64,000 nucleotides of DNA from an uncultured Gammaproteobacteria bacterium (GTDB lineage: Bacteria > Patescibacteriota > Microgenomatia > UBA8517). Below the pieces are notes generated by a model. That model saw only the letters and a list, made by a program, of their open reading frames with translations. It was not told where the DNA came from and did no database searches. The translations under genes were made by a program, and so were the position numbers. The stretch's first letter is position 1. Each line of letters starts with the position of its first letter. The DNA lies in assembly GCA_964540475.1 (NCBI GenBank), contig CAZIMC010000001.1:204056-268055 (forward strand). Reading direction: 5' to 3'. Shown piece by piece: positions 1,646-63,666 of this stretch.

Positions 1646-1646
1646 G

Positions 1647-1722: not shown

Positions 1723-1754
1723 CGTTCGTATCCTAAAATGGAACTTTAAGCAGT

Positions 1755-2005: not shown

Positions 2006-2353
2006 TTAAAGAAGTTTTTCCACCTTGTTTATAACTGTATTAATGTTAAAAGGTTTAGCAATATAATCATCCGCATGACACTTTTGGGCCAATTGCTTAG
2101 TCTTTTCTTCTGGGTGAGCAGACATTAAAATTACGGGTATTTTTTTCTTTTGTTTCACTTGCAGACACAGATCCGACCCGTTAACGCCTTTAAGAATAAC
2201 ATCCATAATTATTAAGTCTGGTGGCGAATTCAGTTTTTGAAATATAGTGTTCCCCACCTCATCTATTTCCACGGCATATCCTCTGCCAGCCAACACTTCC
2301 CTAAGAACAACTGATATTTCTTTGCTATCTTCAACAATCAGAATTTTTTTCAT
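2006..2353 (-). CDS. Single-domain response-regulator receiver (CheY-like)
   Basis: 115 aa; the acidic pocket and conserved Lys of the REC fold are recognisable (IVEDS...IIMDV...AKPF). Confidence 0.8.
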   Translation of the reverse strand: MKKILIVEDSKEISVVLREVLAGRGYAVEIDEVGNTIFQKLNSPPDLIIMDVILKGVNGSDLCLQVKQKKKIPVILMSAHPEEKTKQLAQKCHADDYIAKPFNINTVINKVEKLL

Positions 2354-2474
2354 TCACCAATTGTAGGCAAAATCATGCCTTTTCTTCAAGCTAATCTTTT
2401 TAATTTCTTACGATAAATTGCCGTTATTTTGATTTAGCAAAGTGAGGATATTGTAAGAAAGGGGGTGATATAAA

Positions 2475-3011: not shown

Positions 3012-3066
3012 TTTTTGGCAACCAATAATATGCCCCGCTATTTGCGGGGCATATTTAAATTTGTTT

Positions 3067-3315
3067 CTACCTTCTGGCCATTCTTACCAGGAAAAGCAGA
3101 ACACTTGCACCAATTACAGCCACTACTATGCTGTAAAGGTTGAATCCGGTGACCCCGGGTTGACCTAAAAAGTTAAATATAAGTCCTCCCAAAAGCCCTC
3201 CTATGACTCCAACCACAATATCACCAACTGTAGATTGCTGACTGTCGGTTTTCATTACAATTGATGCAATCCAACCAACTAATGCTCCAAATAAAATCCA
3301 AGCTAATATTGACAT
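3067..3315 (-). CDS. GlsB/YeaQ/YmgE-family transglycosylase-associated membrane protein
   Basis: 82 aa; the MSILAWILFGALVGWIA...VGVIGGLLGGLIFNFLG pattern is characteristic of this stress-membrane family. Confidence 0.8.
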   Translation of the reverse strand: MSILAWILFGALVGWIASIVMKTDSQQSTVGDIVVGVIGGLLGGLIFNFLGQPGVTGFNLYSIVVAVIGASVLLFLVRMARR

Positions 3316-3506
3316 TTATTTCACCCCCCTTCGCATAAATTGCTTAGGTACGTTAAGCCTTTATGAATGCTTAACGCCATTAAGATTTAATATCGCCCTT
3401 TACCATAAAAGGAATATTAATTTAATGTAAAGAAGCAGTAAGACCGATTGAAATTTGCTAATTGCTTGCCTTTTTGGTCGGGATTTGGGATCATATCTAA
3501 CAAATT

Positions 3507-4613
3507 GTGATGCTTGAAAAACTTCTAACCCGTGTTTCCTCGTCACTTGAACAAATTATAAGTAGTGCTGGCACCAGGGATTTTTACAAAACTATCGTAG
3601 TGGAAATCGTAGGTCTTACCCGTTCGGAAGGTGGCGGAATATATCTACTTGAAGAGGGCACACTCATGCTTGGATACTCGTCACAATCAAATTATTTTTC
3701 AAAGAAAATATCTAAATTCCACCCCTATTACACTGCTTTCGGCGACAGTCATCATCATGAACTTCTAAAAAAAGACCATAAATTATATATTTGGCCACTT
3801 TATGTGGGTAATAAGGATAAGGTCGGTTTGTTGGTGATGATTAGAAAAAGGAATTACCCCTTTAGATTTCAAGAGCTTTTTGCTACATATTGTCAGATAA
3901 TTGCAGTGATCATTAAAAAATTTGAGTTTAAAGAGCGTGTTGCACGGCTACTTGTGCAAAAGAACCATTTTATTTCCCTCACTGCCCACGAGATGCGCAC
4001 GCCCTTAACTTCAATTTTTGGTTACTTGCAGCTTTTATGTATATGTAGCGATGAAACTATATTGCCAAAGCATAAAAACTGGCTTAATGTAGCTCTTATT
4101 GAATCCCACAAGCTTAATAACATTGTAAACGAGCTTCTGTTGTTTAACAGGATTACCGACCTACGCTTAGTTTTTACTTGGGAGCGGGTGTCTTTGGGTA
4201 GACTCCTGAAAGAGATAAAGGAAAAACTATTATTTTTATATCCCAATGAAAACTTAAAATTTTTGGTGGATTTAAACTTTCCCGAGAATAAAAAGGTCAT
4301 AGTTGACGTTGATAAAATAGAAACGGCAATTGTAAACATGATTGATAAAATACTTAAAAAGTCAGACGCTGATACGGAAACCACCATTCTGACAAGCGGT
4401 ACTGGTGAGCACCTAGAGGTAATAATCAAGCAAGATAAAAAAATCGTGGGTATTGGAAGGGGTGCTAAAAGCCTCGCAGAAATTAATAACGATTGGGATT
4501 TAAGTATTTATATTGCAACCAAGATCCTGAATGCACATGGTGGGAAACTGAGAGTTGATAACTCAAAAGCATTTAAAATGAGAATAATATTTCCAAAAGT
4601 TAAATTTCACTAA
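3507..4613 (+). CDS. Cytoplasmic sensor histidine kinase: GAF-like N-domain, HisKA, HATPase
   Basis: H-box LTAHEMRTPLTSIFGYLQLL; C-terminal G2-like ATKILNAHGGKLRV; no TM segments seen. Confidence 0.65.
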   Translation: MMLEKLLTRVSSSLEQIISSAGTRDFYKTIVVEIVGLTRSEGGGIYLLEEGTLMLGYSSQSNYFSKKISKFHPYYTAFGDSHHHELLKKDHKLYIWPLYVGNKDKVGLLVMIRKRNYPFRFQELFATYCQIIAVIIKKFEFKERVARLLVQKNHFISLTAHEMRTPLTSIFGYLQLLCICSDETILPKHKNWLNVALIESHKLNNIVNELLLFNRITDLRLVFTWERVSLGRLLKEIKEKLLFLYPNENLKFLVDLNFPENKKVIVDVDKIETAIVNMIDKILKKSDADTETTILTSGTGEHLEVIIKQDKKIVGIGRGAKSLAEINNDWDLSIYIATKILNAHGGKLRVDNSKAFKMRIIFPKVKFH

Positions 4614-5281
4614 TCTTTTAAGATATATCCGAAACCACGAACGGAGTGTATCAGTTTATCTTCATAACCATTGTCGACCTTCTTTCTTAAATACCCAACA
4701 TATACATCAACGACCCTGGTTTCTATCTCGTTTGAATACATCCACACTCGGTTTAGAATCATCTCGCGTGTTAAAACTCTGTTTCGGTTACTCATTAAGT
4801 ATTGTAAAAGCTTAAATTCCTGGGGAGTTAATTCAATAAGCTTTTTGCCTCGCTTTACTTCGTGTGTTTGAAGATCTACCGTTAGGTCCTTGGCTTTTAA
4901 TTTTTGCTCTTGGGAAGAGCGTTTCCTAAGAAGTGCTTTAACTCGTGCTACAAGCTCAGTTGCATGGAATGGTTTTGTGACGTAATCGTCTGCCCCTAAT
5001 CCCAAACCCTTGACAATATCATCTACTGTGTCTTTTGCTGTCAAAATCAGAATGGGTATATCTGGGTAGTTACTCCTTATTTCCTGGCAAACGCTCTCTC
5101 CTGATACATCCGGTAAACCCAAGTCAAGTATTACCAGGTCGGGTTCCGTCCCTTCGAGAATTTCCAGAGCCTTAGTCCCGGTTGAGGCTGATTTTGCTGA
5201 ATAACCGTTCTCGAGCAGTAGATCTACTAAGAATTTTTGTAATTGTTTGTCATCCTCAACTATTAAGATGTTTTCCAGCAT
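4610..5281 (-). CDS. OmpR/PhoB-family response regulator (REC plus winged helix)
   Basis: Receiver with DLVILDLGLPD; C-terminal winged helix LTPQEFKLLQYLMSNRNRVLTREMILNRVW...RGFGY. Confidence 0.9.
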   Translation of the reverse strand: MLENILIVEDDKQLQKFLVDLLLENGYSAKSASTGTKALEILEGTEPDLVILDLGLPDVSGESVCQEIRSNYPDIPILILTAKDTVDDIVKGLGLGADDYVTKPFHATELVARVKALLRKRSSQEQKLKAKDLTVDLQTHEVKRGKKLIELTPQEFKLLQYLMSNRNRVLTREMILNRVWMYSNEIETRVVDVYVGYLRKKVDNGYEDKLIHSVRGFGYILKD

Positions 5282-5404: not shown

Positions 5405-5959
5405 ATGCAGAAAACGCAAAGAGCAGCCTCGTTTGAAGGATTTCCAAAACATAAAACTTTCGATACCGGACCGTTCAGGTTCAGTGTCCGTGTGGGCATG
5501 AATCAAACAGTCATGAGAATGACTTGCTATACGGACAAAATCTACACCTCATTTTACAGTTCAACATACAAGAATTTGTTAGCACACCTTCCTGGTATAT
5601 TTAATTGTCAATGTTTTAACCGCGACAACAAAAATTTTGCTGAAGAATCTAAAAATACTGAAATTGCCCACCTTTTTGAGCATATATTTATTCAGTACTT
5701 TTGCGAGATAAAGGCTAATTACTGTAATTGTGCTATCGAGTGCGAGGGCTATACGGAATGGGATTGGGTGGAGAACCCTCCGGGAACGTTCACCATAATC
5801 CTAAATATCGGAAAGAAAGACCTAAAATATATTGCGAAAGCATTAGAAAGGAGTATTGCCCTGTTTAATAAAATTATAGCCGAAAACGAGGATGAAGGTT
5901 TTTTCCCTCTCCCCCAGCCGGTCGTTGTCCCGGTCCCGATTTATGTACCATCAAGATAA
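5405..5959 (+). CDS. Hypothetical Cys-rich protein; start uncertain, internal Met possible
   Basis: 184-aa ORF with several CxC/CxxC pairs (CQCF, CNCAIECEGY); no family recognised. Confidence 0.3.
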   Translation: MQKTQRAASFEGFPKHKTFDTGPFRFSVRVGMNQTVMRMTCYTDKIYTSFYSSTYKNLLAHLPGIFNCQCFNRDNKNFAEESKNTEIAHLFEHIFIQYFCEIKANYCNCAIECEGYTEWDWVENPPGTFTIILNIGKKDLKYIAKALERSIALFNKIIAENEDEGFFPLPQPVVVPVPIYVPSR

Positions 5960-6138
5960 GATTAATTAGTTGGAGAGAAGTATGGTGTTGTTGCAGTTTG
6001 CAATACGCTCCCGGCGCCACTTTCTAGTTCTTGAATTATGGCATTTCTTCTACGGATAATTAAATCTCTTTGAGTATCCTTTAATGCATCACTGTCGGGA
6101 ACGCCTGTTTCTTCTACCATTCTGGCAGCTAGAGCATA

Positions 6139-6648
6139 TCATAGTAGACTCAGTGACAGGGTGTCTGGTTTTACCGTTTCATTTGATACATCTCCAACTG
6201 TAATAGTTTTAGATTCTGGATCGAAATCCTCATACCCCGCAATTCCATCTAAAATCTCAGGAGCAGCATAGTGCAGATTTGCTGAGCTTACAGTTTGAAA
6301 TTTCCAGTTAGGAGGCAAAATCTGAATCAAATCTAAAGATTTTCCCGCTCCCCCCTTTGTGTTGATGTCCAACCTATTGACGTCGTAAATTACTACTACG
6401 GGTGTGTGGCCATTCTCCATGTCAATTTTAACGACTTCTGCGGGTTTTTTTACCCCGCCTGAAATATGAAGTTCCCATTTACCACCTATTAAATCATGGC
6501 TATACTCCGGGGGAACCGAGCTGTCTATTGAGTAGCCGTTTTCAGCTGTGAGAGGTGGAGTTTTGTCTCGTTTGCCTACCAATGCTTTTATTTTTTGTAA
6601 AAAACCACCCGATGACTCCGACATATTATATAAATATAGCACACACAA
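6139..6648 (-). CDS. Hypothetical protein
   Basis: 169-aa ORF. The likely start MSESSGGFLQ shares the MSES start with the next gene. No recognisable motif. Confidence 0.35.
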   Translation of the reverse strand: MCVLYLYNMSESSGGFLQKIKALVGKRDKTPPLTAENGYSIDSSVPPEYSHDLIGGKWELHISGGVKKPAEVVKIDMENGHTPVVVIYDVNRLDINTKGGAGKSLDLIQILPPNWKFQTVSSANLHYAAPEILDGIAGYEDFDPESKTITVGDVSNETVKPDTLSLSLL

Positions 6649-6746
6649 TTTAATGCACCTTTTCTGCCACAGAGCTTATTGAACTAAAAGTCTCTTCTGT
6701 CATTTAAATCATTATATACAAAGCTCACCGGCCAAGGGGAATATTT

Positions 6747-7502
6747 TTAAGCGGCTGGCAAGGCCGTCATAGCTTTGTTTCTTCCACCAAGGGAATTAGT
6801 CAGACTCGAAATTCCATTGATATAAAAAACAGGAACGCTTTTTGCTTTCAATTCATCACTTCCGGTGTAGCATGATTCTAATAAAATTGCGGAATAAAGT
6901 GAACTGTCGTCATATTTTTTCAAAAGCTCATCAACCAAAACGGTGTTGCCTGCTCTTTGCAGTTGTACGCCTTCACTGTTTCTCGGAATATCGCTGTATT
7001 GCTCTCCGATACTGCGGGAACCATCTCCACCATGTCCTTGCACTATTACCACTCCAGTGGCCTGAGAGTTCTTAGTTGCATTTTGGAATTTTTGCCGGTC
7101 TTCGTTTGTGGGTAAAACCTTAATAAGCTCTCGGGCTAGATATTCGTAGGGACGTTCACCGTTCTTGGTAAGTGTATTTAGGTTTTTTGTTGTTTCGGCC
7201 ATCAATTGAAGCATGGATTCATGGGTACGGCTGGATCTTATAGTCCTTTGTTCCGGAGTAAGTGACTCCTGAGGCGAGAGGGTAAGAAATTTTATATTAA
7301 GAACTGATTGGGGAAGCTCGATATCGTAATTGGCAAGATAATTTTTAACATCAGCTGTTACAGGAATATCAACTTCTATTCCCCAGGCAATATTTTCACC
7401 TTCCCCAAAAGTAACCATTCTCCCAGACAACTCTTTTGCGAAGTTGTCAGGAACCTCAGGTGATATGGGAATAACCTGCAATTCGATTGGAGACTCACTC
7501 AT
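6747..7502 (-). CDS. Hypothetical protein with metacaspase/caspase-like His...Cys signature
   Basis: 251 aa. GVVIVQGHGGDG and, about 55 aa later, LLESCYTGS resemble the SGHGG and DSCHSG catalytic-dyad motifs of peptidase C14. Confidence 0.4.
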   Translation of the reverse strand: MSESPIELQVIPISPEVPDNFAKELSGRMVTFGEGENIAWGIEVDIPVTADVKNYLANYDIELPQSVLNIKFLTLSPQESLTPEQRTIRSSRTHESMLQLMAETTKNLNTLTKNGERPYEYLARELIKVLPTNEDRQKFQNATKNSQATGVVIVQGHGGDGSRSIGEQYSDIPRNSEGVQLQRAGNTVLVDELLKKYDDSSLYSAILLESCYTGSDELKAKSVPVFYINGISSLTNSLGGRNKAMTALPAA

Positions 7503-8402: not shown

Positions 8403-9707
8403 ATGCAGACACCAAGAACAGAATTTGCACAAGCTTTGAAAGCTGTCGCGACAGAGCGAGGGCTAGATGCTAACGTGATCCTTGAAACCATAAAGCAGGC
8501 AATTATTGCTGCCTACAGAAGAGATGCAAGAGAAAGAGGCGAAGAGACCGACGACTTGGAGTTTGATGTAGAGCTTAATCCCAGTAATGGCGAGGCGCGG
8601 GTTTTTGCATGGCCGGCTCGTGTTGTTGAAACTCCGGAAGCTGTGGCAGAAGAAGGCGTAGAGGCTGATCTTCCTGAAGAGCCGGAAGAAGAAAAGAAAG
8701 CAAGACTTGCACAAAAACAGGACGTAACCCCTCCGGGATTTGGAAGAATTGCAGCGCAAACCGCAAAGCAGGTTATCCATCAAAAGATCCGCGAGGCAGA
8801 GAAAGATGCTATTTTGGGAGAATTTTCGGAGAGAGTTGGTAACCTGGTTTCGGGAATGATTCTGCGGTTTGATGGGCCCAATGTACGCATTGATATTGGA
8901 AGAACGGAAGGCATAATGCCCGCTGAGGAACGTATTCCAACTGAGAGGCTTAACCCCAACCAGAGGTTAACCTTCCTTCTAAAAGATATCAAAGAAACAC
9001 CAAGGGGCAGGGAAATTATTCTTTCAAGAGCCGAACCCTCATTTGTTGAAAAACTGTTTGCAAGAGAGGTTCCTGAAATTGCATCAGGGAGTGTGATAGT
9101 TAAAAAAGTTGCAAGGGAGGCCGGTGTTAGAACGAAAATCGTTGTCTCTTCTGGTCAGCCGGGTGTTGATCCGGTGGGATCATGTGTAGGTCAAAAAGGT
9201 GTTCGTGTTCAGGCAGTTACAAATGAATTGGGAGGAGAGCGCGTAGATATTATTCCCTGGAGCGAGGATATGGTTGAGCTTATTAAGGCCTCCCTTTCCC
9301 CCGCTGAGAACTTGAGTGTTACTTTGGATGAGGAAAACAAAACAGCTATTGTGTATGCACCGGAAGATCAACTTTCACTCGTAATCGGCAAGGATGGACA
9401 AAACGTTAGGCTGGCTGCAAAAATAACCGGTTGGAAGATCGAAGCCATTGGAACACCGGTTGAAAAAGAAGAACAAGCAGGACAGGTAGAAGAGGTAGAG
9501 CAAGTAGATGGCGAAAAAGAGCCAGAAACCGGAGATGTAAATGCAGAAAAGAATGAAAAAGTAGAACCTGAGAAAGAGATGGAAAAGGTTGAGAAAAAGG
9601 AAAAAACGACCGAGGATACACAAGCTGATCAGCAAGAGGAACATCAGGTAAATTCGAAAGCTTTAAGTGAGGCAGACGCTAGCGGCTCCCAAGAAGACGA
9701 ACAGTAA
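8403..9707 (+). CDS. nusA: Transcription termination/antitermination factor NusA with a long acidic Lys/Glu tail
   Basis: S1 and KH-domain region conserved (GIMPAEERIPTERLNPNQR...SGQPGVDPVGSCVGQKGVRVQAV). Confidence 0.92.
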   Translation: MQTPRTEFAQALKAVATERGLDANVILETIKQAIIAAYRRDARERGEETDDLEFDVELNPSNGEARVFAWPARVVETPEAVAEEGVEADLPEEPEEEKKARLAQKQDVTPPGFGRIAAQTAKQVIHQKIREAEKDAILGEFSERVGNLVSGMILRFDGPNVRIDIGRTEGIMPAEERIPTERLNPNQRLTFLLKDIKETPRGREIILSRAEPSFVEKLFAREVPEIASGSVIVKKVAREAGVRTKIVVSSGQPGVDPVGSCVGQKGVRVQAVTNELGGERVDIIPWSEDMVELIKASLSPAENLSVTLDEENKTAIVYAPEDQLSLVIGKDGQNVRLAAKITGWKIEAIGTPVEKEEQAGQVEEVEQVDGEKEPETGDVNAEKNEKVEPEKEMEKVEKKEKTTEDTQADQQEEHQVNSKALSEADASGSQEDEQ

Positions 9708-9739: not shown

Positions 9740-11125
9740 ATGGAAACTTTACGCGCACCAATTGTAGCAGTTTTAGGCCACGTTGATCATGGTAAGACCT
9801 CGCTTCTTGATGCAGTAAGAAAAACCAAAGTAGCTGCAGGTGAAGCGGGAGGGATTACGCAAAGTATTGGAGCCTCGGTGGTTGAAACTTCGGACAAGAA
9901 AAAAATAACATTTATCGATACTCCAGGTCACGCAGCCTTTGCCAAAATGCGCGCTAGAGGCGTGGGGTTGGCAGATATTGTAATACTTGTAGTTGCAGCC
10001 AACGATGGGCCAAAACCACAAACATTGGAGAGCTTAAATGCCATTCGTGAAACTAATACCCCTTTTATTGTGGCTATAACAAAAATGGATTTGCCTTCGG
10101 CAAACCCGGAGGCAGTTCATGGTCAACTCGAGAAAGAAGGGGTTCTCTTCGAGGGGCGTGGAGGACAAACCCCCTCAGTGCTAGTTTCTTCCAAAACCGG
10201 TGAGGGTATAGAGGAGCTATTGCAGATGATAAGTTTACTGGCAGAAGTAAACGGTGTGAAGGCAGATGAGGATGCGGACCTTGAAGCTGTTGTTATTGAA
10301 ACTCAAAAAGGAAAGGGTGGTCCACAAGTGTCGTTGGTGGTTAGAAACGGGAAGGTGTCAGTTGGTGACCTGATTTCAACAGATTCAGTTTCAGCAAAGG
10401 TTCGTGGAATTTTGAATGAGCGAGGCACACCAGTTAAGCAAATTTTACCTGGCGAGCCGGGACTCATATTGGGATTTTCGGAGCTACCCGTGGTTGGCGC
10501 TTTAGTTAAAAAAGGAGAAGCCACCTATCACAAATCGCATGACGTTGTTGCTAAAAGTCCTCCTACCAAAGCCGATGTTACGGTTTACTTAAAAGCTGAA
10601 AATGCCGGGTCCCTGGAAGCATTGGAAGCCTCCATTCCCGAAGGGGTTGCTGTGGTTGGTTCGTCTGTGGGCGCTGTAACGGAAACTGATGTTTTTATGG
10701 CTAAGGCGGCTGGAGCGTGGATATTTGTATTTCAAGCAAACGTGCCCTCTGGTGTTTCAAAGCTAGCCGAAACCGAAGGGGTGAATATTGAAAGCTATGA
10801 AATTATTTATGAACTTCTGCAGCGACTTGATGAGCTTATTAAAAAGGGGCAGGTGCAAGTTTTGGGAAAAGCACAAATCTTGGAAACTTTCCCTTTTAAT
10901 AACAAGAAGGTTGCGGGTTGTAAGGTCGTTGAAGGAAGGATCAATAAGATAGACAAGCTTTTGCTTATGCGCGAAGATAAAGAACTTGGTGGAACAAAAA
11001 TCGCATCAATCAGAAAACAAAAACAGGAAGTTAGTGAAGTTCGTGCAGGTGAAGAGTTTGGGGTGATTCTTGAACCACAGCTTGATTTTAAAGCTGGCGA
11101 TATGATACTATCGGTCGCAAAGTAA
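9740..11125 (+). CDS. infB: Translation initiation factor IF-2, minimal form (G domain onward)
   Basis: [24 protein letters not shown]1 motif, DTPGH, NKMD; only 461 aa, with no N-terminal extension. Confidence 0.92.
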   Translation: METLRAPIVAVLGHVDHGKTSLLDAVRKTKVAAGEAGGITQSIGASVVETSDKKKITFIDTPGHAAFAKMRARGVGLADIVILVVAANDGPKPQTLESLNAIRETNTPFIVAITKMDLPSANPEAVHGQLEKEGVLFEGRGGQTPSVLVSSKTGEGIEELLQMISLLAEVNGVKADEDADLEAVVIETQKGKGGPQVSLVVRNGKVSVGDLISTDSVSAKVRGILNERGTPVKQILPGEPGLILGFSELPVVGALVKKGEATYHKSHDVVAKSPPTKADVTVYLKAENAGSLEALEASIPEGVAVVGSSVGAVTETDVFMAKAAGAWIFVFQANVPSGVSKLAETEGVNIESYEIIYELLQRLDELIKKGQVQVLGKAQILETFPFNNKKVAGCKVVEGRINKIDKLLLMREDKELGGTKIASIRKQKQEVSEVRAGEEFGVILEPQLDFKAGDMILSVAK

Positions 11126-11128
11126 ATA

Positions 11129-11983
11129 ATGGATAACTCTTTTAAGAATTTAGTTGAATCTGCCAATGCAATAACAATTCTTTTGCCTCAAAACCCTTCA
11201 ATGGACGAAGTCGCCGCTGGGCTGTCCTTTTATTTGGCATTAAGAGATAAAAAGGAGGTTGCGGTTTCTTGTCCCACGCCAATGGTAGTTGAATTTAACA
11301 GACTTATTGGTGTAAACAAAGTTAGTTCGGACTTGGGAAACAAAAATTTAAGCATAAGATTTACGGATTACGAAGCTAGTGATATCGAGCGTGTAAGTTA
11401 TGATATCGAAAACGGACAGTTTAAGCTTACAGTTATCCCTAAACCGGGTTTGTCTGCACCCAAACAAGAACAGGTAGAGATGAACTATTCTGGGTTGGCG
11501 GGTGATACGGTAATATTGGTTGGTGGTAACTCGGCTGATGATTTTCCCGCTCTGTCTTCAAAAGACATGCTTTCTTCAAAAATAATTCACGTCGGAACAA
11601 AGACTTTGGCAACAAGCGGCGACAAGGCCCTACTCTCTTTTGACAGACCAGCCTCCGCGGTCAGTGAAATTGCCTACGCTTTGATTAGCGAAACTGGCGT
11701 AACCATTGACAGCGACGTGTCGACAAATCTTTTGGCTGGGATTGAAGCTGCCAGTCAAGGATTTAAAGCCGATGGTGTATCCGCTGAGACATTTGAGATC
11801 GTTGCCCATCTTTTACGTGCTGGCGGACAAAGACTTGTGCGAAATCAAAATAAGGAAACTTTCCCGGGCAACATTATACCCGGTCAGGCAGTTTTTGCAG
11901 GACCGGACGAACCCGAAGTTAAGGAAAATGCCCCACAAGATTGGCTCGGGCCAAAAGTATACAAAGGCACTTCGATAAGTTAA
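11129..11983 (+). CDS. DHH-family (NrnA-like) homolog with degenerate catalytic motifs
   Basis: PSMDEVAAGLSFYLAL aligns with the PDGDAIGSALAL motif I of NrnA-type phosphoesterases but lacks the Asp pair. No DHH motif found. It sits where ylxP/rbfA/truB normally lie between infB and rpsO. Confidence 0.4.
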   Translation: MDNSFKNLVESANAITILLPQNPSMDEVAAGLSFYLALRDKKEVAVSCPTPMVVEFNRLIGVNKVSSDLGNKNLSIRFTDYEASDIERVSYDIENGQFKLTVIPKPGLSAPKQEQVEMNYSGLAGDTVILVGGNSADDFPALSSKDMLSSKIIHVGTKTLATSGDKALLSFDRPASAVSEIAYALISETGVTIDSDVSTNLLAGIEAASQGFKADGVSAETFEIVAHLLRAGGQRLVRNQNKETFPGNIIPGQAVFAGPDEPEVKENAPQDWLGPKVYKGTSIS

Positions 11984-14835: not shown

Positions 14836-15882
14836 ATGGATACTGCCGCACAGGAAATTAACCTTCTTTCCCAACAAGTTGGGCAAACTCAGATTCCAGA
14901 AAAACTAAAAGAGTCGATAATTCTTAGGCTTGGCCAACTCGGGAAACTTACTCAATCACCAACTTTTTTGCCTGAATTTGACAGAGTTAATAAATATATT
15001 CAGTGGGTCATAAAAATTCCCTGGAATAATAAGACTCAAGATATTTTAAATATCGAAACGGCCAAAGCAATCTTAGACAAAAACCATTTTGGTTTAACAG
15101 ATATTAAGGAGCGCATTCTTGAATATGTTTCTGTAATGAAACTAAAGCAGGAGAGAGGAGAGGGACAGGATATTTACCGTGCGCCTATTTTGTTTTTTGT
15201 TGGTCTGGCGGGTACCGGAAAAACTACAATCGCAATCTCAATTGCCGAGGCTCTTGGGCGTAAGTTTGCAAGAATCCCTTTTGGCGGGATGGGTAGTCCG
15301 TTTGATTTACGGGGGCAGTCACGCATGCATCCTGAGGCAGAACCTGGAAATGTTATTAAGGCATTGGTTGATGTTGGTTCTAGAAACCCAGTAATTTTAC
15401 TCGATGAAATTGACAGGGTTACCGATGATGGCCGTTCCTCCATAATGGGTGTACTATTGGAACTACTAGACCCGGGACAGAATAAAGACTTTATTGACCA
15501 CTATATTGACTACCCTGTTAACTTATCAGAGGTTTTATTTGTTGCAACGGGAAATAATACTACCCACGTTTCAACAGCGGTTTTGGATAGGTTGGAGCCA
15601 ATTTCAATGCCCAGTTATACCGATTTGGAGAAAATCACAATTGCAAGGCAATATGTGTTGCCGAAACTAATAAAGCTTTCCGGGGTCCCGGAAAATGCTT
15701 TGGTAATTGATGAGAATGTATGGCCGAACATTGTGCGGCCATTGGGTTTTGATGCCGGAATCAGAACTTTAGAGCGCACTATCGAGGGAATAGTAAGGAA
15801 AGTGGCTCGGGCAATTGTCGAAGGAAAAGGTCACACCTTCCATATAACTTCAGATAATGTTAAACAGTTTTTGCCATTGTAA
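14836..15882 (+). CDS. Lon-like AAA+ ATPase module; no N-terminal substrate domain and no protease domain
   Basis: Collinear with the Lon helical linker plus AAA+ region (IQWVIKIPWNNKT, HFGLTDIKERILEYV, Walker A GLAGTGKTT, Walker B ILLDEIDRV, sensor-2 region). The ORF stops where the Lon protease domain would begin. Confidence 0.75.
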   Translation: MDTAAQEINLLSQQVGQTQIPEKLKESIILRLGQLGKLTQSPTFLPEFDRVNKYIQWVIKIPWNNKTQDILNIETAKAILDKNHFGLTDIKERILEYVSVMKLKQERGEGQDIYRAPILFFVGLAGTGKTTIAISIAEALGRKFARIPFGGMGSPFDLRGQSRMHPEAEPGNVIKALVDVGSRNPVILLDEIDRVTDDGRSSIMGVLLELLDPGQNKDFIDHYIDYPVNLSEVLFVATGNNTTHVSTAVLDRLEPISMPSYTDLEKITIARQYVLPKLIKLSGVPENALVIDENVWPNIVRPLGFDAGIRTLERTIEGIVRKVARAIVEGKGHTFHITSDNVKQFLPL

Positions 15883-18695: not shown

Positions 18696-20813
18696 ATGTC
18701 CAAAAAGAAAAAAAGAGGTGGCGGGAGGCGTTCATTCAGCCTCAAGCTTAAAAAAGAGACTGTCTATTCGATTGTTCAAATTTTGTTTTTTTCCCTTGCA
18801 CTTCTTGTTATAGTTTCTTTCTCAAGACGCGGGCTTATTCTTGTTCGTTTAAACGATCTGTTGGTTGAATATTTTTCCTGGACAACTGTTTTGTTACCTT
18901 TTATTTTTCTTTCATTTGCCTTTCTTCTTTCGAAGATTAAGTTTCCGCTTAGTCAACCCAACGTGATTGTTGGGAGTTTGTTGTTTTTTGTTTCTATTGC
19001 CTCAATTGCAAGAGCGGGAATAGCGGGCACTCTGGCTTGGGAGGGAATTGCAAGCCTTATAACGCCAGTTGGTGCTTTTATTGTACTTTTAGGAACATTA
19101 ATAACAGGCATTGTGATTCTTTTTAACACCTCTTTTGACCAGCTGTTTAAGTTTGTATCGGGCGTAGTGACCGCAATGAATAGATATATTTTTGGTGACA
19201 AGAGGTTCGTTGGTGCTGCTCCCCGCGGAGAATTGAAAGTAGTTGGAGGAACACCCTTTAGTAATACCGCTCAAGCTAAAGCTCCGGTTACCAATACCCC
19301 AAAAGAACCCTTGGCACCTAAGCTTGTAAGTAATGTCCCCGGTGAAGACAAGCTTTGGAAGTATCCTTCGGTTGAGCTTTTAAGCGATGCGGAATCAGGT
19401 AAGGCAGATCGTGGAGACATAAAAGGGAATGCTGCAATTATTGAGAAAACTTTGGAATCATTTGGAATTACAGCACGCGTCGTTGAGGTTAATTTAGGGC
19501 CTGCAGTTACACAATACGCAATTGAGGTCGCCTTAGGAACAAAGCTTAGTAAGATTACTGCCTTAGAGCGGGATTTGGCTTTGGCCCTTGCTGCTCCAAC
19601 TGGGACTATCAGAATTGAAGCACCTATTCCAGGAAGAAGCCTTGTTGGAATAGAACTTCCAAATAAAACATCGGAATTTGTGCCTCTTAGGAAAATGATT
19701 GAATCAGAAAGCATGAATTCTCATGGATCAAAACTAGCAGTAGCGCTGGGTCTTGACGTTGGTGGAAAGGCTTTAGTGGGTGATATTGCCAAAATGCCCC
19801 ATGTTATGATTGCCGGACAGACCGGTTCAGGTAAGTCGGTTTGTGTCAATGCTTTCCTTGCATCCATTCTTTTCCGCGCTAGCCCGAGTGAGGTTAAATT
19901 TATATTAGTTGACCCTAAAAGAGTTGAGTTAACAGGCTATAACGGTATTCCACACCTTTTGGCACCGGTTATTGTTGAGCCGGAAAAAGTTATTTCCGCA
20001 CTACGTTGGGTTTTGTCTGAAATGGACAGACGCTATAAGCTTTTTGCGGAGGCTGGGGTTAGGAATATTGATGGATATAATGAAATGAGCGGTTTTCAAG
20101 CACTTCCATATATTGTTGTAGTAATTGATGAACTAGCAGATATCATGCTTTTCTCGCCTGTTGAGGTTGAAGATGCCATCACTAGAATTGCGCAGATGAG
20201 CAGGGCTACGGGGATACACATGGTTCTTGCGACCCAAAGGCCGTCGGTTGATGTCATTACTGGCCTTATCAAAGCAAATATTCCCTCAAGAATTGCTTTC
20301 GCTGTTGCCTCCCTTGTTGACTCTAGAGTTATTTTGGATACCCAAGGAGCCGAGAAGTTACTTGGAAAAGGCGACATGCTTTACCTTCCCCCCGAGCAGG
20401 CTAAGCCATTACGAATTCAGGGAGCATTCGTTTCTGACAAAGAGGTAAATGAACTAGTCAGTTTTCTTAAAAACCAGGGAATCGAGCCACAGTACACCGA
20501 GGAAGTTACCACTATGACCAAGGCGGGTGTAGCTGGGTTACCGGGAGCTGGAAGTGATATCGATGATTTGTTTAAGGAGGCAATTAAGATTGTTTGCCAA
20601 TACGACCGCGCATCTGCATCGCTATTACAACGGAGGCTTTCAGTTGGATATGCCCGGGCAGCCAGAATAATTGATCAACTCGAAGCCGCTGGTGTCGTGG
20701 GGCCAGCCGAGGGGAGTAAACCCCGAGATGTATTGGTTCAGAATGCAGACGAATTTCTAGCATCATTAGGGGCTTCGACCGACACTCCTCAGGCGGAACA
20801 GGTGGCGAATTAG
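18696..20813 (+). CDS. ftsK: DNA translocase FtsK/SpoIIIE
   Basis: N-terminal TM helices, then motor domain with Walker A GQTGSGKSV and the C-terminal winged-helix gamma region. Confidence 0.9.
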   Translation: MSKKKKRGGGRRSFSLKLKKETVYSIVQILFFSLALLVIVSFSRRGLILVRLNDLLVEYFSWTTVLLPFIFLSFAFLLSKIKFPLSQPNVIVGSLLFFVSIASIARAGIAGTLAWEGIASLITPVGAFIVLLGTLITGIVILFNTSFDQLFKFVSGVVTAMNRYIFGDKRFVGAAPRGELKVVGGTPFSNTAQAKAPVTNTPKEPLAPKLVSNVPGEDKLWKYPSVELLSDAESGKADRGDIKGNAAIIEKTLESFGITARVVEVNLGPAVTQYAIEVALGTKLSKITALERDLALALAAPTGTIRIEAPIPGRSLVGIELPNKTSEFVPLRKMIESESMNSHGSKLAVALGLDVGGKALVGDIAKMPHVMIAGQTGSGKSVCVNAFLASILFRASPSEVKFILVDPKRVELTGYNGIPHLLAPVIVEPEKVISALRWVLSEMDRRYKLFAEAGVRNIDGYNEMSGFQALPYIVVVIDELADIMLFSPVEVEDAITRIAQMSRATGIHMVLATQRPSVDVITGLIKANIPSRIAFAVASLVDSRVILDTQGAEKLLGKGDMLYLPPEQAKPLRIQGAFVSDKEVNELVSFLKNQGIEPQYTEEVTTMTKAGVAGLPGAGSDIDDLFKEAIKIVCQYDRASASLLQRRLSVGYARAARIIDQLEAAGVVGPAEGSKPRDVLVQNADEFLASLGASTDTPQAEQVAN

Positions 20814-58264: not shown

Positions 58265-58819
58265 CTACTTGCTTTTTAAATACTGACTAGCCAAATCTGG
58301 GTGGTTAGACTCCAAAACCTGCTTAAGTAACCTTTTTGCTCTATATAGCTTGCCTTCAACAGAACGCTCACCCGCATTCATTGCTTTGGCAATTTCCTTT
58401 ATGGTTAAGTTTCCCCAAAATCTTAGATAAATAAGTTGTCTTTTTTCTGGGGGAATCAGTTTTACGCATTCCCTAATTGAGGCTCTAACTTCATGCAATA
58501 TAGTGATCTCCTCGGGAGAATAATCATTGTCTTGCAACTCAAAGGCCATTGACTCAAGAAATGGAGAAATCATTACCGAGTTAGTGTGTACCTGTTCTCT
58601 GTAATAGTCAGCGATTTTTTTAATCGCAATGGCGCAAAACCAGGTCAAATATCCACTTTTGTTTCTGAAAGTCCCCCACCCTTTCCACGCAGCGCAAATA
58701 GTTCTGGCAAAGATTTCATCCAGCGCTTCGGGATCGCTCCCTAGCTTTTTTGCTATAAATTTTGTTAGCGGAGAGGAGATGGTAGTATAAACATTTTCAA
58801 ACGAATTTCTGGTAGGCAT
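58265..58819 (-). CDS. ECF-type sigma-70 family sigma factor
   Basis: Region 2 (YLTWFCAIAIKKIADYYR) and region 4 HTH (LTIKEIAKAMNAGERSVEGKLYRAKRLLK). Convergent with rpsI, abutting it with no spacer. Confidence 0.8.
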   Translation of the reverse strand: MPTRNSFENVYTTISSPLTKFIAKKLGSDPEALDEIFARTICAAWKGWGTFRNKSGYLTWFCAIAIKKIADYYREQVHTNSVMISPFLESMAFELQDNDYSPEEITILHEVRASIRECVKLIPPEKRQLIYLRFWGNLTIKEIAKAMNAGERSVEGKLYRAKRLLKQVLESNHPDLASQYLKSK

Positions 58820-58988
58820 TTGTTGGGTCGAGAATCAGAAAATTATCACGAACTTTACAACCATATTATAGAACATCTGGACTGGTTGAGTGTAACCAAA
58901 GAGGAAATTGAGGCTATTTCAGCCAAGGAAGCTGAGATGCAAAAGTCACCACTATTTATTACCTACTGACATTGGCTATAATAAAAGC

Positions 58989-59252
58989 ATGGACAAAGTT
59001 AAAAAAGACAATCTAACAGATCTGATAGGAGATGTAACCAAACCTCAAGAATCTACGCCTCCCGAGCCGGATGCAAACCCAAAGCCTCAACTTGGATTAG
59101 ATGACTATCAAGTAACTACTCCTGATGGTGAAGTCATAGATTTAGCCTTGCTTACAGTTGATAAAAGCCAGAATATAAATCAAACTTTGATGCGAGGAAC
59201 AGATCAAAAAGGAAATCACTACATCCTCATAGTACAGAGGAAAACTCCATAA
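58989..59252 (+). CDS. Hypothetical 88-aa protein (start chosen at MDKVKKDN); divergent from the ECF sigma gene
   Basis: ORF with TATAAT 6 nt upstream of the ATG; no similarity recognised. Confidence 0.3.
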   Translation: MDKVKKDNLTDLIGDVTKPQESTPPEPDANPKPQLGLDDYQVTTPDGEVIDLALLTVDKSQNINQTLMRGTDQKGNHYILIVQRKTP

Positions 59253-59500
59253 ATTACACTAGCTCGAATCCTCCCGAACTTAGTATATGTAGTGGTATTG
59301 GTAAATGAATCATCAATGATGGAAATGATAGACGGGGGTGGTTATTTTAGCTGTTGAACTTTTGTTACAATTGGTTAGTAGCCTCTAAAATCTCTGGCTC
59401 TTTTTGAAATTGAGTTTTTAAGGCTAAATAGTCTTAGTTTAAGTCTTTCAGAATTAAGTTTTTAGTATGAGTAAAACTATCAAACTCTTAACAAAATCAA

Positions 59501-60013
59501 ATGGCACAAAATTTAATCTCAAATTCAAGGCGGGATCGGTTACTAAGGCAGTGCGAGAGCCTCATGTTGCGTGGCATAGATTCTCCAACTGACATATCCG
59601 ATACACTCAACATCTCCTACAACACAGCAAAATCCTACATTTCCCTTATCAGGGAGAGATGGGCTTGTTTGTCTACAGTTGATGAATTACAGGCCAAAAG
59701 GCAGGAATTGATACGCAAGACTGAGGAGATCGTCAAAGAGTCATGGGAGCTAAAAAAGACTGCTAGAAACAACCTAGAGGCTGTAGGTGCATTGAGAACC
59801 GCCTTGATGGCCATAGAAAGGCTTGAGAGGCTACAGGGGATTAGTTCTTTACCCTTGCCAATAGAAAAGCCAAGGGAGCAACAAATATCCGAACTTGCTC
59901 ATAAGATCAATCAATTACCATCAGAGGAGAAACAAAAATATATATTACGGGTAAGAGAGGAGATAAAAAGAAGAAAAGGCAAGAACTACAACTTGTCAAA
60001 TTATCCTCTTTAG
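59501..60013 (+). CDS. Hypothetical element-borne protein with a probable N-terminal HTH
   Basis: 170 aa; DISDTLNISYNTAKSYISLIRE resembles an HTH; coiled-coil C-terminus. Confidence 0.4.
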   Translation: MAQNLISNSRRDRLLRQCESLMLRGIDSPTDISDTLNISYNTAKSYISLIRERWACLSTVDELQAKRQELIRKTEEIVKESWELKKTARNNLEAVGALRTALMAIERLERLQGISSLPLPIEKPREQQISELAHKINQLPSEEKQKYILRVREEIKRRKGKNYNLSNYPL

Positions 60014-60059
60014 TATGGGCAGTATGCACCACTGCCCATCGTTAAAAAAGACAATTTAC

Positions 60060-60440
60060 TTAGCCTTGCTCTTTTTTAGGTGCATATGGTGCTAATCTTG
60101 TCTTTACAAAATCAGCAAACGCCTCTGTTGGCCTAAGCATTTTGTTGCCCTCTTTATCAGTCTCTACTGTTGCAAAACCTGCCTCCACTACTTGCTCATA
60201 GTGTCCTTGCAGGGGTACGTCTACCCATCTACCAGCTTCAACTGCATGCACAGTCATTCTTCCCATCAATACTTCTGATTCGGAGTGGTTAGTTGGGGAA
60301 TTTCTGTAAATGGAAACCCAACCCATTCCTGTCAATGTTTTTGACTGTTCTGCATTTTCAGGAGTCAGTAATTCAGGTACAGGAATTTTTTCATCTAGTT
60401 GTTTCAATGGGCTTTCTACTCCTTGTGGTATTTCAGACAT
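60060..60440 (-). CDS. Hypothetical protein, co-oriented with and 3 nt downstream of the excisionase-like gene
   Basis: 126-aa ORF; no family recognised. Confidence 0.4.
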   Translation of the reverse strand: MSEIPQGVESPLKQLDEKIPVPELLTPENAEQSKTLTGMGWVSIYRNSPTNHSESEVLMGRMTVHAVEAGRWVDVPLQGHYEQVVEAGFATVETDKEGNKMLRPTEAFADFVKTRLAPYAPKKEQG

Positions 60441-60443
60441 TAC

Positions 60444-60653
60444 TTAATCACCTCCTTTCTTATGATCTATTGTAACTTGTTTTGATAAGTTCTGCTTAAT
60501 AAAGCTATCTAGAGCGTCTTTTGATATTCGATACCCTCTACCTAGTTTTACTGCTTCCAATCTGCCATTTTTTATGTAGTTCAAAACTGTCTGCCAGTGT
60601 ACTTGAAGGAGTCTTGCTACCTGTTCCACTGTGTAAAAAGAATTGCTTTTCAT
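60444..60653 (-). CDS. Excisionase-family (MerR-like) HTH DNA-binding protein; candidate recombination directionality factor
   Basis: YTVEQVARLLQVHWQTVLNYIKNGRLEAVKLGRGYRISKDALDSFI matches the excisionase-family HTH pattern. Confidence 0.75.
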   Translation of the reverse strand: MKSNSFYTVEQVARLLQVHWQTVLNYIKNGRLEAVKLGRGYRISKDALDSFIKQNLSKQVTIDHKKGGD

Positions 60654-60749
60654 AGCTGAATAAGTTATAAATTATTATAAGCATTTGTCAATCAAAATAG
60701 CAAGTGCAAGTTCCATCATCGATGATGGAAATAGAAAATTTAGACAATT

Positions 60750-62411
60750 ATGGCTACTACACAAGACTTATTGTCCATCCTAGAAAAATTGCAGGGTAAG
60801 GATCAGGAACGGGATACTTCACAATATCGCTATGTTATTTATGCCAGAAAATCTACAGAGGGTGAGGAACGGCAAGCCAGATCTTTGGGAGATCAAGTTG
60901 TTGAATGTACAAAGATAGCAAGTAGCCGAGGATTAAAGTTACTCGCTCGTCCATTTAGCCCAATTGAGGAGAAACAAAGTGCCAAAGAACCAGATATCAG
61001 GCCGAAGTTCCGGAAAATGTTGGATGACATTAAACAAGGCAAATACGAGGGTATCATAGCCTGGCATCCAGATAGACTTGCTCGCAATATGAAAGACGCG
61101 GGGGAGATTATCGACTTACTGGATAAGCAAATCATAAAAGATTTACAATTTGTGAGCTTCACTTTCGAGAATGACACGGCTGGCAAGATGCTTCTGGGTA
61201 TGTCTTTTGTCCTCTCCAAGCAGTATTCAGACAAGCTACGAGATGACGTTAAACGTGGAATCAGACGGAGTATTGAGGACGGCAAATACCTGAGTAAAGC
61301 CAAGCATGGCTATTATCGGGATCGCAACATGATGCTCAGGCCAGACGGCAACAACTTTACTTTACTCAAAGAAGCCTGGCAATTAAGGCTACAAGGCAAA
61401 ACTCAAAAGGATATTGCCAAGTATCTGACTGATAAGAATTACAAGCGAAGTGAGGGAGTTGGCGATATTACCCACAAGACGTTGAAGATGACGGACAAAG
61501 TTTTGTCTGAGATTTTCCAGGATACGTTCTATACTGGTGTGTTAGATTACGGCACCAGTGGTTTAGTAGACTTAACCGAGGTTTACGATTTTGTCCCTAT
61601 GGTTACAGTTGATGAGTTTTTAAGGATTAACCGCTTCAGTGATATTAGAAAAGCCTTTGAAAACAAGCGTAGAGGGCTTAAAACCGATATTAAAGCGGAC
61701 TTCTTGCGTAGGATCGTCTATTGTGGCCATTGTAACGAACAGATGAGTACGGGCATTACTGTCAAATACTCCAAGACTGATAAAACCAATTATTTCAACT
61801 TCAGGTGTGATACAGTCGGATGTAAGATTACTCTCCCAAGTGGCAGGAAAGTCAATCAGAACGTCCGAGGCAAGGTTGTCCTAGATTTTGTGTACCAATT
61901 CCTAGAGGAAAACAAGTTTACCGACAAAAGAGCCTACAACCATTACTTACAGGAAATGAAACATGTTCAGGAGAATAAACGCAAAGAACTTGAAGCAAGG
62001 AGAAAATCAATCCAGATAGCAGTTAAAGAGCTTGAGGAGCGTATAAACCTCATTAAAGAGTCGTTGTATCACGAAAATGATAGTGAGATTAAGGATGAGT
62101 ACAAGGTTGACTTGAAAGCCAAAAAAGCCCAACTCAAGCAAGCCAATGATGAATTAGTCAAGATCAAGGAAGCTAAAGTCAAGGGAAGTAAGGTTGTACT
62201 GACTTATCAGGAGTTTGTCGAACTTTTTAACAATCTGCCCGATATATTGAGAAAAACCAAGTCTATGGAGGGCAAGGATCAGATCATCCGAAAAATCTTC
62301 TCGAACTTTGTTCTCAAGGATAAAAAAGTGGCGTTATATGGGCTAAATCAGCCTTTCAAGGACTTCATTGATAAAGGCTATTTCGCCTCTAGTCGGGGTA
62401 CTCGGAATTGA
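60750..62411 (+). CDS. Large serine recombinase (phage-integrase type)
   Basis: N-terminal resolvase catalytic domain (YVIYARKSTEGEE, HPDRLARN). Recombinase domain and zinc ribbon (CGHCNEQMS...FRCDTVGCK), then a coiled coil. Its 3' end overlaps tRNA-Pro by 19 nt. Confidence 0.85.
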   Translation: MATTQDLLSILEKLQGKDQERDTSQYRYVIYARKSTEGEERQARSLGDQVVECTKIASSRGLKLLARPFSPIEEKQSAKEPDIRPKFRKMLDDIKQGKYEGIIAWHPDRLARNMKDAGEIIDLLDKQIIKDLQFVSFTFENDTAGKMLLGMSFVLSKQYSDKLRDDVKRGIRRSIEDGKYLSKAKHGYYRDRNMMLRPDGNNFTLLKEAWQLRLQGKTQKDIAKYLTDKNYKRSEGVGDITHKTLKMTDKVLSEIFQDTFYTGVLDYGTSGLVDLTEVYDFVPMVTVDEFLRINRFSDIRKAFENKRRGLKTDIKADFLRRIVYCGHCNEQMSTGITVKYSKTDKTNYFNFRCDTVGCKITLPSGRKVNQNVRGKVVLDFVYQFLEENKFTDKRAYNHYLQEMKHVQENKRKELEARRKSIQIAVKELEERINLIKESLYHENDSEIKDEYKVDLKAKKAQLKQANDELVKIKEAKVKGSKVVLTYQEFVELFNNLPDILRKTKSMEGKDQIIRKIFSNFVLKDKKVALYGLNQPFKDFIDKGYFASSRGTRN

Positions 62412-62464
62412 ACCGAGATCTTACGCACCCCATGCGCAAATACTAGCCGTTATACTATACCCCG
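62393..62464 (-). tRNA. tRNA-Pro (anticodon GGG)
   Basis: Hand-folded cloverleaf: 7-bp acceptor stem with C1:G72, discriminator A73, D arm, anticodon stem TGCGC/GCGTA, loop AT-GGG-GT (U33, G37), 4-nt variable loop, T arm CTCGG-TTCAATT-CCGAG. No encoded CCA. Confidence 0.75.
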
Positions 62465-62583: not shown

Positions 62584-63666
62584 ATGGCAAAGAAAAAAGA
62601 TGTTCAAAATCCAGTAGCCCAAACTGATTCTTCCCAGAAACTTCAGGCTATAAGGTTAGCAATGGATCAGATCGAGAAGCAATACGGTAGAGGCTCTATT
62701 ATGAGACTAGGACAACAAGACGCAAGTAGGTTAAAAATCGGTGTTATTCCAACAGGTGCCATAGCTCTTGATCTAGCCCTAGGAGTTGGCGGCTTACCGA
62801 CAGGAAGAATCATTGAGATTTATGGCCCGGAAGCTTCGGGAAAAACCACACTCGCTCTTTCTGTGGTTGCCGAAGCCCAAAAAAGAGGCGGCCAGGCTGC
62901 ATTTGTAGATGCTGAACATGCACTTGACCCAGTTCGAGCTGAGACAATAGGTGTTAACTTAGACGACTTATTGCTTTCTCAACCAGATACTGGTGAGCAG
63001 GCGCTAGAGATTACTGAGACCCTAGTGCGATCAGGGGCATTGGACGTTATAGTGGTTGATTCAGTGGCAGCTTTGGTTCCGAGAGCAGAATTAGAGGGTG
63101 AAATGGGTGATGCTGTTATGGGGATGCAGGCAAGACTTATGAGTCAGGCATTGAGGAAATTAACAGGTGCAATCTCTAAATCTAATACGATTTTAATTTT
63201 TACAAATCAGATCAGGCAGAAGATAGGAGTAATGTTTGGTAATCCGGAAACTACACCTGGTGGGCTAGCTCTTAAATTCTATTCATCGGTTAGAATTGAT
63301 GTTCGAAGAACGGAAGCCATTAAAGATGGTGACAATGTAATAGGCACTAGAGTAAGGGCTAGGATAGTTAAAAATAAAGTTGCTCCTCCCCTGAAGGTTG
63401 CTGAGTTTGACATAATGAACGATGTTGGAATATCAAAGGCCGGAGGGCTTTTAGATGTAGCAGTAGAACTTGGCATAATAGGAAAGAGTGGCTCCTTCTA
63501 TAATTATGAGAGCAAACCTTTTGCTCAAGGGCGTGAGGCAGCAAAGCAGTATATACAAGATAATCCTAAATTCGCTGAGGAGTTAGACAAAAAGATTCGT
63601 GAAGTTATGGCTTCAGGCAAAAAGCTCCCAAAGGAAATCGGGGAAGTAGAGGAGAAAGAGGAATAA
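62584..63666 (+). CDS. recA: Recombinase RecA
   Basis: Walker [11 protein letters not shown]1/L2 loop regions; 360 aa. Confidence 0.97.

Follow-up and report, generated by a model that had tools for sequence, protein, structure and literature searches.

The window analysed here, the whole 64,000-nucleotide stretch of contig CAZIMC010000001.1 (positions 204,056 to 268,055), contains next to a proline tRNA gene a segment of about 3.57 kb (58827-62395). With a probability of roughly 0.8, this segment is an integrative element of a tiny-genome, Microgenomates-group bacterium of the candidate phyla radiation (CPR), whose attachment site, attP, lies inside the reading frame of its own integrase, a large serine recombinase (LSR). 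The attP site very probably spans the last codons of the integrase gene (int) and the first codons of a segment now found at the far left of the element (the tail), and the free element would encode an integrase of 594 amino acids (aa), followed by a small conserved gene, p87.

The left flank is formed by the end of the ribosomal operon (rpoA-rplQ-rplM-rpsI), followed by a gene for an extracytoplasmic function (ECF) sigma factor (58265-58819, minus strand). The right flank is formed by tRNA-Pro(GGG), on the minus strand, and by recA (62584-63666). This setting, as well as a 553-aa serine recombinase overlapping the convergent tRNA gene, had been described in an initial annotation of the region. 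Open reading frames (ORFs) and domain matches confirm both, with an overlap of 19-20 nt, stop codon counted; the C1:G72/A73 set, also described there, can be read directly in the tRNA sequence CGGGGTA...TACCCCGA. The start of the element had been placed at 59270, about 440 nt to the right of its real left end, at 58827. The features identified are listed in Table 1.

Table 1. Features of the integrative element and its target, by position in the window; L001 and L002 are related loci described in the text.
Feature	Position	Strand	Evidence
attL crossover core GTCG, left element end	58827..58830		Homology with L001 and L002 starts here; same 4 bp at the right junction
Detached 3' integrase segment (C-tail), 46 codons and stop, RESENYHELYNHIIEHLDWLSVTKEEIEAISAKEAEMQKSPLFITY	58829..58969	+	Continues int codon 548 in frame once the ends are joined
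p87, conserved small core gene, motifs KKDNLTDL and QVxxxDGExIxL	58989..59252	+	Homologues beyond tail
Conserved intergenic region p87-p170, about 250 nt	59253..59500	+	Motifs GGGGGTGGTTATTTTAG and GCCTCTAAAAT
p170, helix-turn-helix (HTH) DNA-binding protein with a helix of about 70 residues	59501..60013	+	AlphaFold2 (AF2) mean predicted local distance difference test (pLDDT) 80, N-terminal HTH
p126, variable cargo	60060..60440	-	ORF start 3 nt past the HTH_17 stop
HTH_17/'excise' DNA-binding protein, 69 aa, divergent from int	60444..60653	-	PF12728, TIGR01764
Perfect 20-bp palindrome TTCCATCATCGATGATGGAA, likely operator	60711..60730		20 nt upstream of the int ATG
Large serine recombinase, integrated (shortened) form, 553 aa	60750..62411	+	ORF, Pfam, PHROG, NCBIfam, AF2
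attR crossover core GTCG, tRNA positions 71-74	62392..62395		Junction sequences
Host tRNA-Pro(GGG), integration target	62392..62464	-	ARAGORN; Rfam places it at 62393-62464, 51.5 bits

Junctions and integration target

The limits of the element were established by comparing the window with two related copies, found in the genomes GCA_964599625.1 (locus L001) and Daviesbacteria GW2011_GWB1_41_5 (locus L002). According to blastn and to the junction sequences, nucleotide homology begins at GTCGAGA (58827) and ends at TCTAGTCG/GGGT (62392-62395). The left flanks are all different, and GTCG is found at both junctions in 3/3 genomes; this shared core of 4 bp is consistent with a 2-bp crossover. The attP junction expected in an excised circle reads TATTTCGCCTCTAGTCGAGAATCAGAAAATTATCACG, and the expected empty target, attB, reads GGCATTTGTTGGGTCGGGGTACTCGGAATTG.

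Since the crossover falls within GTCG, the mature tRNA is left intact, with nucleotides 1-73 unchanged by the insertion, and only the 3' trailer is replaced. The T-arms of the tRNAs of the window, L001 and L002 show compensatory differences. A repeat search found no displaced tRNA fragment, the signature of tyrosine integrases, in the window, and GC content revealed no compositional anomaly. Two copies of an 18-nt repeat, at 59309 and 60715, were evaluated as possible attachment sites and rejected: their centres differ (CA versus CG), both lie in promoter regions, and the boundaries of the element are elsewhere.

Some details of the insertion site may be added. The ECF sigma gene begins, on the minus strand, at 58819, with its start codon 7 nt from the left element end. 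Before the insertion this gene would have followed tRNA-Pro at a distance of 7 nt, in the same orientation and probably within one transcript; 3.57 kb now separate the two. At the equivalent position of a closely related genome (L174, see below) an RDD gene is found, 20 nt after the tRNA. The four tRNA-Pro ends compared (window 62392; L174:7830; L001:11643; L002:11643) all read ...CCCCGA-C. The trailer reconstructed for the window before insertion is ACCC, not ACCA, and CCA is apparently not fully encoded there.

The integrase frame across the crossover core

When the element ends are joined, the int frame runs across the core (...FASSR/ESENYHELYNHII...) in a single 594-aa ORF, and the protein around the core reads ...KGYFASS-R-ESENYHELYNHIIEHLDWLSVTKEEIEAISAKEAEMQKSPLFITY, followed by the stop codon. 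In the integrated copy, the last five codons and the stop of the integrase gene (RGTRN, stop) are instead provided by the antisense strand of the tRNA. The overlap between tRNA and integrase would be the visible half of an attP located inside the integrase gene, a point missed in the initial annotation.

The tail segment, 141 nt long, has no possible start codon (ATG, GTG or TTG) between the element end and its conserved motif. The corresponding sequences are RESENYHELYNHIIEHLDWLSITKEEIEAISSKEAELDQPLFITY in L001 and RDAENSLELYNHIIQNLDWFSVTKEEIEAISAKDAD... in L002; 10/15 of the substitutions with respect to the former, and 22/39 with respect to the latter, are located at third codon positions. 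A hidden Markov model (HMM) of the tail, with consensus hELa..hh.N....h..WN.....F, also matches the left ends of elements with an integrase only 40-50% identical. All together, the tail is found at the left ends of elements of 2.9-8.2 kb from about 17 lineages. Those identified by the HMM include L103, L107, L110, L119, L121, L123, L125/L135, L126, L131, L134, L143, L148, L161 and L164, and their targets are tRNA-Pro(TGG/CGG), Val, Leu, Ala and transfer-messenger RNA (tmRNA).

Crossover cores defined by the longest shared k-mer proved noisy, with matches due to the T-arm or to chance, and were therefore checked by hand. In every case so checked, the sequence common to both junctions (GTCG, GGTCGGG, GTGC, GGTGCG, TGGTGGAGC...) is read in one and the same codon phase by int and by the tail. 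The C-termini of the integrated forms are arbitrary, ranging from 5 to about 55 residues (for example RGTRN, RGGGN and REEEN), and reading through the whole tRNA results in proteins of 565-606 aa.

A contiguous ORF, including both an LSR and the tail, was seen once, within a tandem array at tRNA-Ala(TGC) (L114:1-11671; also L112, L113 and L115). On the distal element of the array, a type III restriction-modification pair (685-3168 and 3171-4808, minus strand) is accompanied by a distant LSR (5620-7302), whose C-terminus is the tail of the tRNA-proximal element, fused in frame. The arrangement of the array implies integration into an already occupied site.

Several results weigh against an attP located within the integrase gene of a mobile element. 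The reconstructed attP and attB show dyad symmetry at 6-10 of 26 positions, none above chance, which is unusual for LSR sites. For the subfamily of the window, neither an excised circle nor an intact attP was found, in searches of low power; a pattern scan of IMG/VR for the attP junction returned spurious matches only, and no overlapping ends were detected by a terminal-overlap test of all contigs collected. No transfer or replication function was recognised in the element proteins. A word-indexed protein search with the tail found no full-length protein including integrase and tail, and an exhaustive HMMER search retrieved only fragments of 57 and 66 aa. In the AF2 model of the 594-aa protein the tail, with a pLDDT of 30-50, is not placed. 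Finally, the shortened integrase gene is intact in all integrated copies, and the tail may be dispensable.

The results of the protein searches and the low AF2 confidence would also fit a left-end segment unrelated to the integrase, either an independent small gene or a conserved P' arm of the attachment site, matching the int frame by accident. Gene callers do sometimes annotate a protein of 57 or 66 aa in this position, with a start codon in the host flank. However, the element itself offers no start codon before the conserved motif, conservation extends for about 135 nt, far past an LSR half-site, with the substitution pattern of a coding sequence, and the phase agrees with int in all hand-checked lineages, in spite of their different cores. 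Moreover, in L114 the same segment is the C-terminus of a real LSR ORF. A segment independent of the integrase is consequently regarded as rather unlikely.

Two additional loci may be mentioned in connection with the tail. L095 (1-3918) is a contig of 3.9 kb, starting just upstream of a p87 homologue and ending 32 nt after int; the 3' end of its int, GGTCGAGA, resembles attP and not a tRNA, and a stop follows after five more codons. The contig may represent a circle in permuted form, its tail having degenerated, but its two ends do not overlap. At L152:535-2349, an LSR of the family (40% identity) has an extension of about 45-50 aa, for a called ORF of 604 aa; no tRNA is adjacent, and an unrelated gene of 392 aa follows. 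This may be a copy with a different target, or an immobilised one.

Distribution, movement and gene content

The occupied site was compared with the corresponding region of related genomes. The closest relative found, L174, with a RecA 88% identical, has the order rpsI ... RDD gene - tRNA-Pro(GGG) - recA, with no integrase, and its empty junction reads ...TTTGTCGGGGATGG. The empty site that the initial annotation had proposed to look for is therefore present, and a 3.6-kb block at this site is not common to all close relatives. In three more distant Microgenomates (L014, L017 and L018) tRNA-Pro(GGG) is similarly found upstream of recA, without integrase; the homologues of the empty site in L174, L017 and L018 share the same ...GTCGGGG end. 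L014 and L017-L019 were obtained from a scan of genome contigs with RecA, which was unspecific, with a best match of 69%, and mostly returned unrelated phyla. Exact-protein look-ups of the integrase and RecA of the window found no record in the databases.

In L001, the integrase is 94% identical and abuts another proline tRNA (CGG), beyond which lie tRNA-Arg and the genes of a PEGA protein and of MreB. In L002, the integrase is 81% identical and located, as in the window, at tRNA-Pro(GGG)-recA, with a left flank composed of SET and AdoMetDC genes. Gene order is therefore variable among relatives, contrary to the universal conservation that the initial annotation had named as evidence against mobility. 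Between the window and L002 the adjacent RecA proteins are only 68% identical; an integrase more conserved than its neighbour points to horizontal transfer between divergent hosts. Taken together, empty sites, copies at other tRNAs and the higher conservation of the integrase support the proposal of an integrated mobile element.

An immobile remnant of a larger prophage, satellite or integrative and conjugative element (ICE), of which only the integrase module survives, appears improbable, more so than a tail foreign to the integrase. No replication, transfer or packaging genes are recognised, and more distant integrase relatives (37% identical) are found on IMG/VR contigs of 13.6 and 38 kb. 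On the other hand, a compact tail-p87-...-int layout is repeated in about 20 lineages, with intact genes and, for elements with two defined ends, a size of 2.9-8.2 kb; the cargo varies between copies, while the ends remain conserved, and the 94% identical copy at a different tRNA in L001 implies recent movement of the small unit itself. A fixed host gene, either a developmental excisase like XisF/SpoIVCA or the resolvase of another system, in ordinary synteny with tRNA-Pro, can be practically dismissed: the linkage between tRNA-Pro and recA is indeed conserved in Microgenomates, and XisF is the best NCBIfam match (71 bits, against a cut-off of 375), but empty sites in the closest as well as in more distant relatives, copies of the gene at other tRNAs, and an integrase more conserved than RecA across hosts refute it.

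The integrase of the element shows the domain composition of an LSR. The Resolvase domain (PF00239, residues 29-180) is matched with E 3.6e-23 and 82.7 bits (cut-off 23.3), the Recombinase domain (PF07508) with 24.5 bits (cut-off 21.1), and the PHROG integrase family phrog_95 with E 3e-52; the zinc ribbon PF13408 is reported in the precomputed annotation of homologues. The YARKS motif (R33, S35) is invariant in 36 homologues, and the zinc-ribbon cysteines C325, C328, C353 and C358 are also invariant. AF2 predicts a catalytic/recombinase/zinc-ribbon/coiled-coil layout, with a coiled coil of about 90 residues formed by helices 393-441 and 445-479, and the protein aligns end to end with the SPbeta integrase in the PDB (residues 30-519 to 17-507 of the chain). 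Homologues with E <= 1e-10 are 1721, mostly from CPR/Patescibacteria metagenomes, while phage integrases in INPHARED are at most about 27% identical.

The targets of the family were analysed on 60 non-redundant loci, in which no less than 75 nt were available past the aligned int end. In 51 of them int and a convergent tRNA or tmRNA gene meet at their 3' ends, and in 2 more the tRNA or tmRNA is located slightly further away. Pro is the commonest target (25 loci), followed by Val (6), Leu (4) and Glu (4); further targets are Ala, Arg, Gly, Asp, Ile, Gln and tmRNA. Two IMG/VR contigs, whose integrases are 37% identical, end in tRNA-Gly. Int, with its tail, and p87 are the core genes of the family, and p170 is limited to the closest subfamily. 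The family is widespread and apparently undescribed: neither a clade of LSRs dedicated to tRNA/tmRNA, with a detachable tail, nor such mini-elements in CPR bacteria were found described in the literature.

Some loci of the family show peculiar features. Two integrases (L148:11599-11978 and L159:11620-11742) end in the 3' end of the tmRNA gene (ssrA). In L128, two LOOT RNA copies (Rfam RF03000, 70 and 81 bits), at 8848-8974 and 15622-15738, flank a family integrase (10001-11521): one precedes the integrase, and the other separates it from a tmRNA gene (20053-20370). In L001 (7359-7396), an 18-nt fragment similar to the 3' end of tRNA-Pro, GGTCGGGGTGGCAGAATT, is followed by a perfect hairpin, CCTGCCTGCCGGCAGGCAGG. 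Together they end about 10 nt left of the left junction, whose core GTCG is at 7406; a fragment of this kind is not expected from an LSR crossover.

The initial annotation had described three small unrecognised genes. Two of them, p170 and p126, are credible, whereas a 41-aa ORF (59467-59592) overlaps p170 and is probably spurious; a further real gene, p87, had been missed, being located left of the proposed start. Homologues of p87 lie directly downstream of the tail in 14 lineages in which both coordinates were recorded, and 20 distinct ones were found overall. Because of this position, int with its tail and p87 are proposed to form one transcription unit in the circle. No Pfam, PHROG, NCBIfam or PADLOC match was obtained for p87.

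The spacer between p87 and p170 is unusually conserved and may contain promoter, operator or origin sequences. An operator-like site, ATCATCAATGATGGAAAT, is predicted at 59309-59326, and a promoter-like site at 59362-59391; no RNA structure is supported in this region. p170, kept in the closest subfamily (L001, L002, L095 and L096), produces only generic HTH matches, both by profile search against the PDB and by Foldseek of PDB and BFVD. The space between p170 and int is a cargo slot, differing among copies: a Metallophos_2 phosphoesterase and an alpha/beta hydrolase are found in L001, and a 216-aa protein in L002. p126, which occupies the slot in the window, has no homologue in any collected locus or library. 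A phage origin of the cargo, to be checked according to the initial annotation, found no support, with no PHROG match for p87, p170 and p126, and no phage match for p126. No replication, capsid, terminase, primase or defence domains were detected in the element proteins (Pfam, PHROG, NCBIfam, PADLOC), and no relaxase domain in any ORF (Pfam, NCBIfam). Of the "minimal mobilisable island or satellite" originally proposed, a small integrative element stands, and a satellite is unsupported, with no PHROG, capsid, terminase or relaxase matches in its favour.

The gene originally described as excisionase-like does belong to the HTH_17 and 'excise' families (PF12728, E 6.6e-15, 55.5 bits, cut-off 27; TIGR01764, E 1.2e-15, 57.6 bits, cut-off 28.8), but is not a core or co-inherited directionality factor of the family. 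Homologues were found only in the closest subfamily (L002-L011, L094-L097 and L108), and none in more distant loci; the gene is also absent from the L001 element, in spite of the 94% identity of the integrase. For these reasons, it is better read, on the basis of its distribution, as an accessory regulator than as a universal directionality factor. It may or may not be the directionality factor of its own element; phiRv1 offers a precedent for an HTH-type Xis that works together with a serine integrase. The protein probably represses the divergent int promoter through the 20-bp palindrome, which is conserved in L002 and L097, and absent in L001 and in the 70% subfamily. In the window, as in L001 and in L002, p170 is preceded by a related half-site.

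Proposed mechanism and relation to known systems

According to the proposed mechanism, the LSR would recombine attP with attB at the very 3' end of tRNA-Pro(GGG), with a crossover within GTCG. In the free circle, int would be composed of 594 codons, followed after 19 nt by p87, and the tail would be translated as part of Int. Integration would move the last 46 codons and p87 to the opposite end of the element, and the chromosomal int would end instead in five arbitrary residues, derived from the antisense strand of the tRNA. The tail swap might then change the activity of Int: possibly the long form integrates, while the short form is inactive or prone to excision, and p87 might act as a partner or as directionality factor.

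A switch of integrase isoforms upon integration, from a free Int-594 co-transcribed with p87 to a tail-less Int separated from it, is put forward only tentatively. It is similarly a speculative proposal that loss of the tail and uncoupling from p87 alter activity or stability of the integrase, thus biasing the reaction after integration. The PDB holds a chain in which the SPbeta integrase is fused to YotN, which we take to be the SPbeta directionality factor. The idea of a change in activity is based on this fusion and on the role of the coiled-coil/C-terminal region, reported to govern directionality in the phiC31 and SPbeta integrases (PMC2475636, PMC11722253).

The closest functional analogues are SSV-type integrases and the integration-dependent immunity of mycobacteriophages. 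In archaeal fuselloviruses and related plasmids, the integrase gene contains attP, a tRNA gene is the target, and integration splits int. SSV-type integrases, however, are tyrosine recombinases and split off a large part of the gene, whereas the enzyme of the window, a serine recombinase according to Pfam, loses the last 46 codons and keeps catalytic and DNA-binding domains intact; the likeness is functional only. In mycobacteriophages such as BPs and Brujita, attP is in a coding region, and integration alters the C-terminus of a phage protein, and hence its activity or stability. There the altered protein is the repressor, and the integrase is of the tyrosine type; in the family described here, it is the integrase itself which is altered.

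The serine integrases of phages and ICEs (SPbeta SprA, phiC31, Bxb1, A118 and TP901-1, as well as CcrAB and XisF) have in common with the window enzyme a Resolvase catalytic domain, a recombinase domain, a Cys4 zinc ribbon and a long coiled coil, in addition to a short crossover core without long direct repeats. The element of the window differs from these systems in targeting the 3' end of tRNA/tmRNA genes, in having attP inside the integrase ORF, and in its size, only about twice that of the integrase gene. A statement in a 2015 database paper holds that serine integrases were not known to use the tRNA/tmRNA 3'-end class of sites (PMC4383910).

Integrative and mobilizable elements (IMEs) of streptococci also use LSRs, and in IME_Spy2096_SNF2 the recombination site is noted by the authors to be inside the integrase gene (Coluzzi et al. 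2017, PMC5357655). They differ in having protein genes as targets (snf2, maff2, traG) and mobilisation modules, and neither a conserved detached tail nor a tRNA target is described for them. Prochlorococcus tycheposons and cryptic tRNA elements, 910 of 937 of which have a tyrosine recombinase and the rest an LSR (Hackl et al., bioRxiv 10.1101/2020.12.28.424599), resemble the window element, by their description, in being small, cargo-carrying and located at tRNA genes; most of them combine a tyrosine recombinase with replication genes, and no split integrase is reported for them.

The element of the window is a genuine LSR integrative element, in itself of a known kind; what appears new is an LSR clade apparently dedicated to tRNA/tmRNA genes and endowed with a conserved, probably detachable tail. 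The family appears specialised for the 3' ends of these genes, leaving the tRNA intact, although serine integrases, employed as genome-engineering tools, are usually described as avoiding tRNA targets. If the tail, alone or with p87, sets the directionality mediated by the coiled coil, its control would be written into the topology of the gene, instead of or beside a separate directionality factor. The family would also represent a dedicated tRNA/tmRNA-targeting clade of serine integrases, widespread in Patescibacteria. An attP within the integrase gene, combined with a conserved detachable tail, suggests a new way to couple integrase activity to integration state. The elements document horizontal gene flow between divergent CPR hosts and, by their tiny size, swappable cargo slot and spread across Patescibacteria, are natural candidates as integration vectors for CPR bacteria, for which very few genetic tools exist.

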